IMG/VR virus record: IMGVR_UViG_3300029816_000015
Span: 1-23,279 of that record
Origin: a virus
Lineage: Duplodnaviria; Heunggongvirae; Uroviricota; Caudoviricetes
DNA: 23,279 nt
Direction: 5' to 3' (one strand)
In this document: positions 1 through 21,023 of the stretch, piece after piece
How positions within the stretch are numbered: the first letter of the stretch is position 1
Layout: every line of letters starts with the position of its first letter
Notes under the pieces: generated by a model
What the model saw: only the letters and a program-made list of their open reading frames with translations
Database searches by the model: none
What the model was told of the DNA's origin: nothing
Position numbers and translations under genes: made by a program

Positions 1-2383
<2,383 letters not shown>

Positions 2384-5887: not shown

Positions 5888-6366
5888 TTTTTAATACCCT
5901 TCTTAGTAGAAATTTTATAAGCAAGGTTATCCCTTAAGTCACCTGTCTCAACAAGAGGTGCATTAAAGCCTTTTTTCTTGACTGTGGAAGGTGCGTTAGG
6001 AGGGAGGATAGCAGAATTACCAAAACCTCTTTTAATCGCCTTTTGAGCATTCTTTGCAAATGCTTCTAAGGTATTTGAAGGGTCTGTGTTGAGACTGCTA
6101 AGTTGCTTATATAGATTCTTCTTAGTCTGCTCTAACAAGGTCTGTTTGTTTAGCATCATAGTGATTTCAAACAACCTACGATATACTTTACCAGAAGCTG
6201 AAGGAACCCCAATGACTTCTTGTAAATACATTAAAGCAGGATAAGAAAAACCAGAGCTATGTTGACCTTGTTCTTGAAAATACCCAACTTGAGCATTAGC
6301 CGTTTGCAAGTTCTTCATAGCCCCGACTAATTTTGCTCTAGCGGGGTGAATAACCCTTTTAACCAT
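5884..6366 (-). CDS. Hypothetical structural protein (head-tail connector candidate)
   Basis: 160 aa ORF, 4-nt overlap with downstream ORF; position in morphogenesis module. Confidence 0.4.
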   Translation of the reverse strand: MVKRVIHPARAKLVGAMKNLQTANAQVGYFQEQGQHSSGFSYPALMYLQEVIGVPSASGKVYRRLFEITMMLNKQTLLEQTKKNLYKQLSSLNTDPSNTLEAFAKNAQKAIKRGFGNSAILPPNAPSTVKKKGFNAPLVETGDLRDNLAYKISTKKGIKK

Positions 6367-9720: not shown

Positions 9721-10053
9721 CTATTTGTTTAAATCTACAGAGACTGAAGAGATAACATAGATACCTTCTTCAGCGAAGAATTGAGGTTTGCTAAGAGCAC
9801 CAGTTGCCACGCATTTATCGTTAGCATCCCACAAGCTATAGTGTGAGACCGTTGCAGAAGCTGGAACAGTAATGCTAACTGTGTCTTCTGAGGCAATTAA
9901 GCCATTATCCGGTTCAGAAAAATAAATAGCCACTGGCTGAGTAACCTTATTTGCTGTAGGGTCTGCCGTTGGGTCTACATTGTGTAAAATAATAGTCGTT
10001 GGGGTTAGCGTGGCGAGGATTTTATTCTTACCATCAATAGTTAATGTTCCCAT
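9721..10053 (-). CDS. Hypothetical protein (head module)
   Basis: 110 aa ORF between portal and protease genes; no recognisable motif. Confidence 0.45.
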   Translation of the reverse strand: MGTLTIDGKNKILATLTPTTIILHNVDPTADPTANKVTQPVAIYFSEPDNGLIASEDTVSITVPASATVSHYSLWDANDKCVATGALSKPQFFAEEGIYVISSVSVDLNK

Positions 10054-16757: not shown

Positions 16758-17011
16758 ATTAAATCTTTTTAGAGAACTTCTAAGAACCTAAGCAACAAGG
16801 TTCCACAACAAGCTGTAATAACCTTAGAAGCCCTCTAAAAAGACCTAATTTGGTCTTTGCATAGTCTTGTTTAATCCGGTGACTAGAACCTTTGGAGAGC
16901 TTGATATATCTCTTCTCCGTGACACCTACTAGGTGCTTTATCAGTGTACGACAATACACGAGGGATAAACCGAAAATGCGAGCAAGCATGGACGGTGTAA
17001 ATCTTATTAGG

Positions 17012-17099
17012 CGGTAAGTAAAGGAGTCGAACCCTCACCGTATCTCTACAGTGGCAACAGTTTTCAAGACTGTTTGGCTGCCATTAGCCGCTACCTACC
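17012..17099 (-). tRNA. tRNA-Ser (anticodon TGA), long variable arm
   Basis: 88 nt; acceptor GGTAGGT/ACTTACC, 3-bp D stem, perfect anticodon stem ACAGT/ACTGT with loop CTTGAAA, long variable arm, T loop TTCGACT. Confidence 0.6.
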
Positions 17100-17115
17100 C
17101 CTAATAAGATTTTGG

Positions 17116-17815: not shown

Positions 17816-17822
17816 ATATTGG

Positions 17823-17895
17823 TAGAAGTGGAGGGATTCGAACCCATCGCCTGTCAGATTAAAAGTCTGCCGCATCACCATTCTGCTACACTTCC
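17823..17895 (-). tRNA. tRNA-Lys (anticodon TTT)
   Basis: Acceptor GGAAGTG/CACTTCT, anticodon stem CAGA/TCTG with loop CTTTTAA, T loop TTCGAAT with GGG/CCC core as in the other Lys tRNA, CCA encoded. Confidence 0.55.
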
Positions 17896-17901
17896 ATTAA
17901 A

Positions 17902-18040
17902 TTATCTTTGTAGATAAGCTACCCAGACTTGCTTAAGGTCTGTAGCGATGTGCCTTGTTGGGTTTAAATCTAGAATTTACCCTTTCACCCTTTGTGGTCG
18001 CATACTCACAGGTAAGCTTAATAACTTATCTACAAAGATA
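17902..18040 (-). repeat. Long hairpin: 17-bp perfect inverted repeat (TTATCTTTGTAGATAAG / CTTATCTACAAAGATAA) enclosing about 105 nt
   Basis: Arms at 17902-17918 and 18024-18040 are exact reverse complements; interior holds smaller hairpins including CCAGAC-N8-GGTCTG (17922-17943); no tRNA fold found. Confidence 0.5.
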
Positions 18041-18044
18041 ATTA

Positions 18045-18176
18045 CCAGACCGTTGTTTATCATCTTAAGTGCTACCATTACACCAACTCGACATCTGCCG
18101 AGTGAAGGAATCGAACCTTCGCCTTTTCTTTACCGGAGAAATAGATTGTTTAAGTTTTGCTGTAAACGGTCTTCTG
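18045..18176 (-). ncRNA. Candidate Y-RNA-like ncRNA (YrlA-type) with permuted tRNA-like module
   Basis: Closing helix from minus-sense CAGAAGACCGUU (5') and AACGGUCUGG (3'); interior in minus sense has T arm GAAGG-UUCGAUU-CCUUC, then hairpin ACUCGGC-AGAU-GUCGAGU, then D-arm-like UGGUGUAAUGGUAGCAC. No anticodon arm. Confidence 0.4.
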
Positions 18177-18188
18177 TAAATTTGTTGA

Positions 18189-18265
18189 GCCAGACCAAGT
18201 TTTAAATTTTCAAAATTAAATTGGCTTTAAATTTTAAGTAACTTGCTGAATTTGGTCTTCTGCTC
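18189..18265 (-). ncRNA. Bulged-helix hairpin element, same closing helix as 18045..18176, AT-rich interior
   Basis: Arms GCCAGACCAAG (18189-18199) and TTGGTCTTCTGC (18252-18263) pair as AGACC/GGUCU plus a 3-nt bulge plus GG/CC; loop about 50 nt without tRNA-like arms. Confidence 0.3.
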
Positions 18266-18277
18266 CTTTAAAGAATA

Positions 18278-18314
18278 CTCGTAAGAACCCTTTAAGGGAG
18301 GGGCTAAATAGCCC
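18278..18314 (-). promoter_or_regulatory. Conserved spacer motif (minus sense CTTAAAGGGTTCTTACGAG) next to small hairpin GGGCTA-AA-TAGCCC
   Basis: Near-identical to the motif at 15174-15195 (minus sense CTTCTAAGGGTTCTTACGAGAG); weaker copies at 16770-16790 and 17428-17450. Function unknown. Confidence 0.3.
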
Positions 18315-18326
18315 TCTCAAAATTGG

Positions 18327-19155: not shown

Positions 19156-19521
19156 TTACCAGATATAACGGTCAACCATTACTGCTTTGAGCATTACGCT
19201 GATTGGGTCAAACTTCTCACCACCAAGCAGAGCTTTTAAAGTGGCTGGAGAGAACCCTGATACCATCGCTACACCATTATCCTTAACAGATACTTCGCAA
19301 GTACCATTACGGTTTGCTAAGTACCAGAATACTAGTTGTGGCATTTCGTATCCAGCTTTTTTGTACTTACTCTGAATTGCTTCAAAGTTTGTACGACCAT
19401 TTGCACCATCAACCTGATTAAACTCCATATCAGAGAAGATAATAAGCTTACTTGGCATATCTTTCTGAGTCAAGTTGTTTCTCTTACCTATCTCAAGAAT
19501 ACGGTCAAAGCTGCTTGTAAG
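19156..19521 (-). CDS. C-terminal part of Ro60/Rsr-like (or DUF2828-like) vWA-domain protein, out of frame with N-terminal part
   Basis: Frame open from just after a TAA at 19522-19524; encodes LTSSFDRILEIGKRNNLTQKDMPSKLIIFSDMEFN... (second half of a vWA fold). ORF track entry 19156..19473 begins at an internal TTG. Confidence 0.55.
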   Translation of the reverse strand, partial: LTSSFDRILEIGKRNNLTQKDMPSKLIIFSDMEFNQVDGANGRTNFEAIQSKYKKAGYEMPQLVFWYLANRNGTCEVSVKDNGVAMVSGFSPATLKALLGGEKFDPISVMLKAVMVDRYIW

Positions 19522-20570
19522 TTAGTTGAACCATATTCAACATGACGCATTACCTGACGATGACGGTTTCGTAAATCACCACTCAGTTCAATGAAATGAG
19601 GGTTTGTTGAATAGACCATTAACTCATCTTTAAAGCAACCTGTATTGCGTTCTGCTACATACAAGGCAAGTGATACACCAATATCAAGGGCAGTGATTGA
19701 ACCAAGATTCACCCAAGACATTGAGCTTGAAACATCAGTCATACACAAGATGTTCTCACCTTCTGCCATCCAGTTTGGTAGTGCTTTCCACTGCTCATTA
19801 GCAACATCTGCATTACCATGCTTGATAGACTTAATCACATCGTATGGGTAGACAGCACCAGCATTAATCTTAGCCTCACCTTTTGATAAGGACTCAATGT
19901 AAGCTTTGTAGCGTTCTCCATCTTTGCGGTTAAAGAGCTTTTGGTAACGTGCAGCAGCAAGAGACGGAATCTTACTGTAATCAATCTTACCAAACTCATT
20001 AGCAGAGATTTTTTGCTCAACCGTATCAGACAGTGCAGATAACAGTGTGCGGTATTCTTTCTCGCTTAAGTTTGCAAACTTACAGAAACGTTTTACAAAC
20101 TGTTTGTGTCGTGGTTTTACTCGTGGTAACCACTTGGCTGCTAAACCTGCTGTCTCAGGGTCTAGTAATGCTGCTTCTAAATGCTTAAAGGCATCTGTCT
20201 CAAAACGAGTACCTACGAAGATTTTGAAGTCATCAAAACGACCAAGTTCTGCAATCTTATCCATAATACGAAGAAACTGTGTAGGCTCTAAAACTTTATC
20301 TTCGATTGCTTGAAGTAAAACAGTTCTGAAGGCTTTACGCTCACCCATACCTTCTCGTACATCTCGCATGTGAAGCAAAATACGAACTGCAACATCAACA
20401 TCCTCACGCAAAGCTTTGTAGAACAAGTCTGGTAAGATTTCTACATTGCTACGGCTTGAACCAGCAGCTTTGTAAAAGTCCACAAGAGCAGACATTGATG
20501 AAGTATGGTTTACAGCACCATTTTCAGTTCGACCTGCATGAAGGTGCGCATGTTTAAATAATTCGCTCAT
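19488..20570 (-). CDS. N-terminal part of Ro60/Rsr-like (or DUF2828-like) protein: helical domain plus start of vWA domain
   Basis: 360 aa; RBS AAGAGAG upstream of ATG; helical N-terminal about 280 aa, then DxSxS motif (CMTDVSSSMSW) typical of a vWA MIDAS; ends at TAG 19488-19490 inside the vWA domain. Confidence 0.6.
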   Translation of the reverse strand: MSELFKHAHLHAGRTENGAVNHTSSMSALVDFYKAAGSSRSNVEILPDLFYKALREDVDVAVRILLHMRDVREGMGERKAFRTVLLQAIEDKVLEPTQFLRIMDKIAELGRFDDFKIFVGTRFETDAFKHLEAALLDPETAGLAAKWLPRVKPRHKQFVKRFCKFANLSEKEYRTLLSALSDTVEQKISANEFGKIDYSKIPSLAAARYQKLFNRKDGERYKAYIESLSKGEAKINAGAVYPYDVIKSIKHGNADVANEQWKALPNWMAEGENILCMTDVSSSMSWVNLGSITALDIGVSLALYVAERNTGCFKDELMVYSTNPHFIELSGDLRNRHRQVMRHVEYGSTNLQAALTVFLR

Positions 20571-20651: not shown

Positions 20652-21023
20652 TTATTTTTTGAGAGTCGCTACAGCAGAGAACGTTGGTTTGTTATCTGTC
20701 TGTGGTTGACCACCATTATCAGGAGTCTTCTTAGTGTCTGCTGCAAGTGCTTTCATCTCACCTGCTGAGTGAGTAAAGATAGTTTTACCGACCTCAATCA
20801 TACTCTTGATGGTTACATCGTCTGTGTTTAACCCGAACTCTGCAAGCTTAGCAGCATCCCTTGTAACAATCGCCTCAAACAGCTTTGCAGCAAACTCAGC
20901 AGAATTATCAATGGTCAGTTGAGCTTTTACGAGTGAGCTTTTGTTACGAGAGCCTTTTGGTCTTCCAGATGGGTTTCCAGATTGGCCTTTTTTAAACTGG
21001 CCTTTGTTTGTTCTGTTTTTCAT
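20652..21023 (-). CDS. Small basic protein with N-terminal GNPSGRPKG motif (putative nucleic-acid-binding)
   Basis: 123 aa ORF, RBS AAGAGG 8 nt upstream; N-terminus KGQFKKGQSGNPSGRPKGSRNK; first gene of the minus-strand operon containing the Ro-like gene. Confidence 0.55.
   Translation of the reverse strand: MKNRTNKGQFKKGQSGNPSGRPKGSRNKSSLVKAQLTIDNSAEFAAKLFEAIVTRDAAKLAEFGLNTDDVTIKSMIEVGKTIFTHSAGEMKALAADTKKTPDNGGQPQTDNKPTFSAVATLKK

Follow-up and report, generated by a model that had tools for sequence, protein, structure and literature searches.

What fills the 428-nt gap that separates tRNA-Asp from tRNA-Lys(UUU) in the transfer RNA (tRNA) array of Felix O1-like phages? We addressed this question in a stretch of 23,279 nt (IMG/VR record IMGVR_UViG_3300029816_000015, positions 1 to 23,279; hereafter, the window), a Felixounavirus (Felix O1 / wV8-like) genome segment in which ARAGORN predicts 26 tRNA genes, all on the minus strand. 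An earlier note on this DNA had reported a perfect inverted repeat around a structured segment in this gap. The last 144 nt of the gap (17900–18043, read from 18043 to 17900; hereafter, the unit), as delimited by a covariance model, folding and conservation, are very probably a functional structured RNA encoded on the minus strand. The full model, in which the unit is processed from the tRNA precursor and persists as a stable RNA, is favoured with moderate confidence. All readings considered here were graded independently, so that their probabilities are not constrained to add up to one.

The inverted repeat is real, and the 17 bp first assigned to it proved too short. The first arm, TTATCTTTGTAGATAAG, lies at 17902–17918 as described, its exact reverse complement lies at 18025–18041, 1 nt away from the 18024–18040 given in the earlier note, and the perfect repeat spans 19 bp (17900–17918 and 18025–18043). 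It extends to 22 nt with one mismatch and, read as minus-strand RNA, to 24 bp including three G·U pairs. This is the longest inverted repeat anywhere in the window and is far beyond chance: 200 dinucleotide-preserving shuffles of the window gave no repeat above 16 bp with arms ≤200 nt apart. As for the hairpins claimed for the interior, GGGT-N15-ACCC was recovered at 17960–17982, and CCAGAC-N8-GGTCTG turned out to be mis-registered, the true hairpin being CAGAC-N9-GTCTG at 17924–17942.

Because of the inverted repeat, both strands of the unit fold well (−48.3 kcal/mol and z = −5.5 for the minus strand, −44.8 kcal/mol and z = −5.1 for the plus strand). In the relatives, many of the pairs that close the unit are of the G·U type when read on the minus strand, with A·C in their place on the plus strand. 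A covariance model (R1) made from the family members scored the window at 147.9 bits on the minus strand versus 49.6 bits on the plus strand. Given these G·U pairs and model scores, we conclude that the minus strand is the RNA strand. Four pairings, all on this strand, are backed by compensatory changes and G·U pairs, i.e., the closing helix (P1), a 3' hairpin (H4), a pseudoknot (PK1) and a further long-range helix (P2).

P1 joins AAUUAUCUUUGUAGAUAAGUUAUU (18020–18043) to GGUAGCUUAUCUACAAAGAUAAUU (17900–17923) in 24 bp that enclose 96 nt; its three innermost non-Watson-Crick pairs form as G·U, and do so solely on the minus strand. In an alignment of 18 sequences (A3), the 24 pairs of P1 were 97.6% paired, with nine changing on both sides and a further six on a single side, for the most part to G·U. 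The stem of H4 (5 bp) adds two compensatory pairs, which brings the two helices together to 98% of cells paired and 11 pairs with changes on both sides. Their covariation score was 0.309, compared with 0.153 ± 0.011 in shuffles (0 of 500 reached 0.309), and was at most 0.064 when the partners were slid by 1–3 columns.

H4 stands directly 5' of the P1 3' strand and consists of CAGAC, the loop CUUAAGCAA and GUCUG (17924–17942). The loop is conserved as C[CU]UNAGCAA (CYUNAGCAA), and the stem covaries across lineages (cagac/gtctg, cagacc/ggtctg, caaacc/ggtttg, ccgtc/gatgg, cagtc/gactg, ctgttc/gaacgg, and aaagtc/gacttt). Two other pictures of this hairpin were rejected. An extension CUAC/GUAG that competes with the top of P1 was not conserved in the distant relative L042, and P1 was preferred; a copy of the tRNA-Lys anticodon arm was considered as well, but the shared CAGA/UCUG is common only in the window's own version of the unit (type A, see below) and fails in other lineages.

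The H4 loop is in turn one half of PK1. Its UAAGC (17931–17935) pairs with GCUUA (18013–18017), which follows the P1 5' strand after 2 nt. Of the unique units, 10 have GCUUA/UAAGC and 13 have GCUAA/UUAGC at this pairing, and the distant contig L127 has UUACUA/UAGUAA; from these variants it follows that two independent PK1 positions covary. P2 starts within the loop of a second hairpin, H1 (GUG, AGUAUGCGAC and CAC; 17994–18009), where GCGA (18001–17998) pairs with the UCGC of a 3' strand that continues with UA (17943–17948). The position of the P2 5' strand in the H1 loop implies an H-type pseudoknot topology. All P2 variants are Watson-Crick and fully paired (4/4), with GCGA/UCGC in 12 unique units, GAGU/ACUC in 13, and GCGG/CCGC in two. 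The H1 stem differs by version (GUG/CAC in type A and GGGG/CCCC in L042; UCGUC/GAUGA in the second version, type B, is weakly supported), and H1 and P2 may alternate instead of coexisting. The PK1 and P2 pairs were counted by script on sequences read directly; PK1 could not be counted on the alignment, where MAFFT had shifted the H4 loops of types A and B out of register with each other. Between the P2 strands lies the central hairpin (GGGU AAAUU CUA GAUUU AA ACCC; 17960–17982), whose UCUAGA apex is kept (ATTCTAGATT is invariant in alignment A1) and reads ACUAGU in L042. A-to-G changes in its stem yield G·U pairs in the variant L034, and the lower stem of type B covaries (AUUUCCU/AGGAAAU, GUCUCUU/AAGAGAU and others).

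How widely is this architecture conserved? The earlier note had proposed a comparison with related phages as a check, and it showed the whole unit to be conserved at one site across several genera. The 821-nt neighbourhood was matched in 287 phage records, and the unit was present in ~250 records of Felixounavirus, Mooglevirus and Suspvirus, all at this site. Type A was found in 196 phage records (190 full-length) and type B in 60 records from the three genera, always between the Y-like modules described below and tRNA-Lys. P1 is unbroken in both and has 23 bp in type B, which has the outer P1, the UCUAGA centre and the 3' hairpin in common with type A and otherwise a different interior. Since both types occur within Felixounavirus with otherwise near-identical flanks, the interior behaves as an exchangeable cassette. 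The addition of IMG/VR variants brought the total to 27 unique units.

More distant relatives were found by following the neighbouring Ro60-like gene (see below) into metagenomic contigs and distant Ounavirinae-like phages. This set comprised L042/L125, L043, L126, L127, L128, L129, L044 (Yersinia phage P778), and the Pectobacterium phages Arno162 and Wc4, with units of 144–185 nt that each lie immediately upstream of tRNA-Lys(UUU). Their P1 helices have ~20–28 bp and are unrelated in sequence between lineages. Most of these units end in a hairpin with the loop C[CU]UNAG[CU]AA on a stem that is different in every lineage, and a junction segment complementary to the H4 loop was found in 10 of 12 representative units, types A and B included. 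The covariance model detected L127 at E = 8.5e-5 and matched L043, Wc4 and Arno162 weakly, exactly at the expected sites. At the syntenic site of a Kolesnikvirus (Erwinia phage Panisse), neither the unit nor an annotated Ro-like gene was found, which is weak evidence of co-occurrence.

The unit did not resolve into any catalogued RNA. ARAGORN and the Rfam tRNA model found nothing within 17900–18043, in line with the earlier statement that it holds no tRNA fold. Searched against Rfam, the window's unit gave no match on either strand at E ≤ 10, and the type B and type C loci gave none at E ≤ 1. Rfam scans by gathering threshold and by E-value returned tRNAs only, plus a sub-threshold partial tRNA match in the neighbouring module, and literature searches on non-coding RNAs or transcriptomes of Felix O1 and Felixounavirus yielded nothing on this element.

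Turning to expression, two promoter-like sites lie upstream of tRNA-Pro on the minus strand (19137 and 19046), and no minus-strand terminator was found ahead of the unit. A 4-nt spacer, UAAU, separates the unit from tRNA-Lys(UUU) (17820–17899 with the spacer; tRNA at 17820–17895, minus strand, by ARAGORN), and the distance to this tRNA was 0–11 nt in every lineage examined. We propose that the inverted repeat is helix P1 of a dedicated ~144-nt non-coding RNA gene in a polycistronic tRNA operon, where P1 caps a compact core formed by PK1, P2 with the H1 loop, the UCUAGA-apex central hairpin and H4. The unit would be co-transcribed with the tRNAs from the promoters upstream of tRNA-Pro, and its 3' end would be set by RNase P cutting at the 5' end of tRNA-Lys(UUU), 4 nt downstream. 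P1 might then either be cut by host RNase III, which would free the unit and split the precursor, or act as a clamp that resists exonucleases. The RNA freed in this way would be an accessory stable RNA, and may be one RNA partner of the Ro60-like protein, beside the YrlA-like modules. The earlier suggestion of a structured segment that could be a processed stable RNA was therefore upheld for the structure, through conservation at one site across genera and helices specific to the minus strand, and it is the processing and the stability that we infer.

The neighbourhood of the unit bears directly on what it might do. A Ro60-like gene with DUF2828 and DUF7788/vWA domains (Pfam; 19156–20570, minus strand) lies 1.1 kb upstream of the unit on the same strand. 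AlphaFold modelled a full-length homologue of its product with a predicted local distance difference test (pLDDT) score of 88.8, and in a Foldseek search of the PDB the top 11 matches were all Ro60, Rsr or TROVE proteins, followed by vWA domains. The protein is a homologue of Bas63 gp130 and of wV8 gp47 (471 aa), and 710 phage records hold relatives of it, among them the 'Ro-like RNA binding proteins' of mycobacteriophages. In the window the gene is split into open reading frames (ORFs) of 360 and 105 aa by a 1-nt frameshift, apparently GG to G in '...ttcttgagatagg...', with the frame switch between 19494 and 19521; the shift may be programmed, may mark a pseudogene or may be an error of sequencing.

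On its other side from tRNA-Lys, the unit adjoins a permuted tRNA mimic (module 2; ~18045–18177, minus strand), recognized by a partial Rfam tRNA match (22 bits, 18103–18153) and by an RNAalifold consensus. Its elements follow in the order closing stem (AGACCGU/ACGGUCU), V-like arm, T arm (GAAGG-UUCGAUU-CCUUC), closed acceptor hairpin (ACUCG...CGAGU), and D arm (GUGU-AAUGGUA-GCAC), and the acceptor-like hairpin shows compensatory changes across genera in the consensus. This is the YrlA layout of bacterial Y RNAs, and the 'Y-RNA-like element' of the earlier note, which had placed the unit between it and tRNA-Lys(TTT), is thereby supported along with that placement. The rest of the gap (~18188–18320, minus strand) holds two conserved hairpins (GAGAGGGCU...AGCCCCUC and CCUUAAAGGG...CUUUAAAGG) and a conserved stem-bulge-stem, module 1 (AGC-AGA-AGACCAA ... 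UUGGUCU-G-GCU; ~18188–18263). The motif CAGAAGACC plus UUNAGCAA is common to module 1, module 2 and H4, and so is the pattern CAGA(AGA)CC - UUNAGCAA ... GGUCUG. A similar stem with the motif UUUCAGCAA was seen in the distant contig L050 (~9800–9860). Odd tRNA-like elements were also noted in Arno162 (~735–860, minus strand; acceptor stem GCCUGU/ACAGGC, a T arm and a ~90-nt interior) and in L127, L128 and L129 (~6091–6181), where ARAGORN calls a 'tRNA-???' with a 2- or 4-nt anticodon immediately downstream of the Ro60-like gene; all of them are candidates for additional Y-like RNAs. Elsewhere in the array, the window's second-longest inverted repeat with separate arms, a perfect 13-bp one (16999–17011 and 17100–17112), brackets tRNA-Ser(UGA) (17010–17099) and could be an extended precursor stem.

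The best-surviving alternative, possible if doubtful, is that the unit is itself a true Y RNA, which would bind the Ro60-like protein and gate it or tether it to host nucleases (PNPase, for example) in the way that Y RNAs act on Rsr. Y RNAs are expected to be encoded on the strand of a Ro60 orthologue and no more than about 4 kb from it (Chen et al. 2014, PMC4201824), and the unit lies 1.1 kb downstream of the Ro60 structural homologue on the same strand. Like the known Y RNAs (YrlA/YrlB, Yrn1/2 and phiLo Yrl1/2), it pairs its 5' and 3' ends into a long stem around a large structured interior, the shape expected of the class. Its 144 nt fall within the ~100–150 nt shared with these RNAs, slightly above the usual ~80–130 nt. 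It adjoins a YrlA-like tRNA mimic at a locus with several distinct RNAs, as in species that usually carry two to four Y RNAs; its place within a tRNA operon recalls the Deinococcus Y RNAs, which are co-transcribed with a tRNA; and H4 has the CAGA..CC-UUNAGCAA-..GGUCUG motif in common with the two upstream stem-bulge-stem modules. The authors of the PhageMaP preprint, who independently likened Bas63 gp130 to Ro60 and showed that it counters the Ppl defence system, speculated that some of the 'tRNAs' downstream of gp130 are Y RNAs (10.1101/2024.10.10.617714).

Several observations weigh against a Y RNA, and some of them also against the processed stable RNA that we prefer. The Ro-binding motif, whether taken as CGAA, GNCGAAG or GNCGAAN0-1G, is missing from the unit (types A and B), there is no conserved stem-bulge-stem, and P1 has neither a conserved bulge nor a conserved sequence. 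Unlike the YrlA subtype, the unit lacks a tRNA-like domain (T arm, closed acceptor and D arm), which the neighbouring module 2 has, and its two covarying long-range pairings are undescribed for Y RNAs. A search with the H4 motif and the covariance model near 75 more distant DUF2828 genes found nothing convincing, and the family accordingly appears confined to this phage lineage. L042 keeps the unit without the YrlA-like module. In Escherichia phage ESCO50 (L041, 1500–1720), which has lost tRNA-Asp, both upstream modules and tRNA-Lys/Met/Ile, the unit is intact with ~20 nt on each side, a retention that speaks for our preferred reading. Conversely, Salmonella phage SP116 (L013, 502–737) is viable without the unit. 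Recombination between T arms has fused the T arm of its YrlA-like module to that of tRNA-Lys, at the cost of the unit, the greater part of tRNA-Lys and half of the adjoining tRNA mimic.

Published insertion data point the same way. The Bas63 'gene' bas63_0138 (g138; 82912–83022) lies wholly inside the unit, and bas63_0137 covers the YrlA-like module. In PhageMaP barcode-insertion fitness scores, given for three replicates each across five hosts or defence systems (10.1101/2024.10.10.617714), insertions in g138 were positive throughout, i.e., S17 (+1.02, +1.03 and +0.31), MG1655 (+0.56, +0.62 and +1.07), TerY-P (+0.49, +0.63 and +0.24), AVAST-4 (+0.86, +0.69 and +0.03), and Ppl (+0.87, +0.39 and +0.18). 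Disruption of the unit was thus neutral on the Ppl host, where gp130 is needed, and does not mimic loss of the Ro60-like gene (g130; −2.87, −3.35 and −3.65). The positive g138 scores, which probably reflect a single insertion site and may be buffered by redundancy with other modules, indicate that the unit is dispensable there and is not an obligatory cofactor of the anti-Ppl activity of gp130. In the same data, Bas63 gene 129 (DUF5681), which is directly upstream of the Ro60-like gene and has its window homologue at 20652–21023, scored ~−2.4 to −2.5 on the Ppl host, and Bas63 tRNA-Ala (gene 148) scored −1.4 to −2.8; these effects may be specific to Ppl or general. Taken together, we do not assign the unit to the Y RNAs and regard the Ro60-like protein only as a candidate partner.

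It is distinctly unlikely that the unit serves purely in cis, as an RNase III site that splits the tRNA precursor around a functionless interior, in the manner of the stems that flank ribosomal RNA (rRNA) or the R sites of phage T7. RNase III stems, in rRNA operons and in the T7 early transcript (R1–R5), bring distant segments together in a helix of at least ~20 bp, and a staggered double cut frees the enclosed RNA. P1, as predicted from sequence, is such a helix in a polycistronic precursor; it is far longer in every lineage than a closing stem needs to be. In L042, L043, L126–L129, L044 and Arno162, it reaches ~20–28 bp, and with this length in every lineage the RNase III substrate proposed in the earlier note is plausible. 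P1 is also A/U-rich and perfect in types A and B, it has T7-like internal loops of 2x2 or 3x2 in L043 and L044, and the unit marks where the Y-like block gives way to the Lys-Met-Ile tRNA block. Unlike the known stems, however, P1 encloses a conserved pseudoknotted domain and not an rRNA or messenger RNA boundary. RNase III cleavage would not explain this interior, in which PK1, P2, the H4 loop and the central apex are conserved and covary and none of which a simple cleavage site needs, and ESCO50 retains the unit although the neighbours to be separated are deleted.

It is very unlikely that the unit works on the adjacent tRNA-Lys(UUU) transcript as a ribozyme or ligand-sensing RNA. The compact double-pseudoknot architecture, the conserved loop nucleotides and the fixed place 0–11 nt upstream of this tRNA in all lineages would suit such a role. 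tRNA-Lys(UUU) is moreover a known target of phage-defence nucleases (PrrC and PARIS) and is favoured by anticodon nucleases, which lends the idea some appeal. Against it, Rfam searches at E ≤ 10 or E ≤ 1 matched no ribozyme or riboswitch in types A, B and C, the 5' end of the tRNA is already explained by RNase P, and the interior is swapped wholesale between types A and B.

An element acting at the level of DNA, such as a cruciform, a pair of protein-binding palindromes, an origin or a miniature mobile insertion, is most improbable. The repeat is perfect over 19 bp as DNA, and each arm of the window's version is itself palindromic (TTATCT-N4-AGATAA), with the two arms being the only exact matches to this pattern. 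The arm palindrome is specific to type A and has been lost in type B and the more distant versions, so we consider it incidental, and a protein-binding palindrome was rejected on the same ground. Many P1 pairs are G·U on one strand only, and the covariance scores are strongly strand-asymmetric. The small mobile insertion raised in the earlier note also found no support, as the unit is a single copy at a fixed site (the covariance model found one copy per genome and no second), target-site duplications and empty sites are lacking, a search of 5,426 complete E. coli genomes gave no match, and the arms conserve their pairing, not their sequence. An element resembling a miniature inverted-repeat transposable element was rejected, given that the sole absence of the unit, in SP116, is part of a larger T-arm by T-arm deletion that also removes tRNA-Lys.

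A small protein can be practically discounted, as the earlier note had foreseen in finding no convincing ORF: ORFs of 85 aa (17948–18205, plus strand) and 28–33 aa exist at the locus, and some records carry them as annotated genes (plus-strand wV8 gp48; bas63_0138 in Bas63), but the annotations disagree between genomes, the ORFs lie antisense to the tRNA operon and extend over the tRNA-like module, they are not conserved and are broken by 1–3-nt indels among type A variants (unit lengths 139–143), and the interior is replaced outright in type B. wV8 gp48 (L002, 1849–2106), bas63_0137 and bas63_0138 (L134, 1749–2023) are antisense ORFs over structured RNAs and are probably spurious.

With which known RNAs is the unit best compared? 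By analogy, it would work most like a Y RNA or like the stable RNAs C and D (RNAC/RNAD) in the tRNA cluster of phage T4. The T4 RNAs are encoded with the phage tRNA cluster and are matured by the tRNA-processing machinery, and the unit likewise lies within a tRNA operon. T4 differs in having no Ro60-like neighbour, and no sequence or structural relationship between its RNAs and the unit was established in our analysis. Also termed species 1 and 2, RNAC and RNAD are small stable phage RNAs whose function is still unknown (PMC9697503). GOLLD and ROOL offer a looser parallel. They are complex pseudoknotted non-coding RNAs of unknown function typically found beside phage tRNA genes, and the unit is similarly ornate and next to phage tRNAs. 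The likeness ends there, as GOLLD and ROOL are 4–6 times larger and are Rfam families, whereas the unit matches no Rfam model.

The unit is therefore a previously undescribed RNA family, with no Rfam model and no description found in our literature searches; unusual in architecture and in an interesting locus, it nevertheless belongs to a known general kind, the non-coding RNAs of phage tRNA clusters and Ro60 loci. A bolder reading, which we consider fairly unlikely, is that it founds a new class of double-pseudoknotted phage RNAs placed always just upstream of tRNA-Lys(UUU) and acting in phage-host conflict, through a partnership with Ro60 or as a tRNA-Lys decoy. If so, the unit could be an unconventional partner of the Ro60-like protein that lacks CGAA and is recognized via the H4 stem and the CYUNAGCAA loop, in common with the two upstream modules, or it could be a decoy or guard tied to tRNA-Lys(UUU), and the exchangeable interiors of types A and B would reflect diversifying selection.

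Felix O1-like phages are widely used in typing and therapy, and their tRNA region has been annotated only as tRNAs and inconsistent 'hypothetical proteins'. Our analyses show that conserved structured RNAs occupy the apparent gap from tRNA-Asp to tRNA-Lys, and they correct the probably spurious ORF calls wV8 gp48, bas63_0137 and bas63_0138. Now that the coordinates are exact, the structure is modelled and natural variants are known (types A and B, SP116 and ESCO50), it can be tested directly which RNAs serve the phage Ro60-like protein and to what end.

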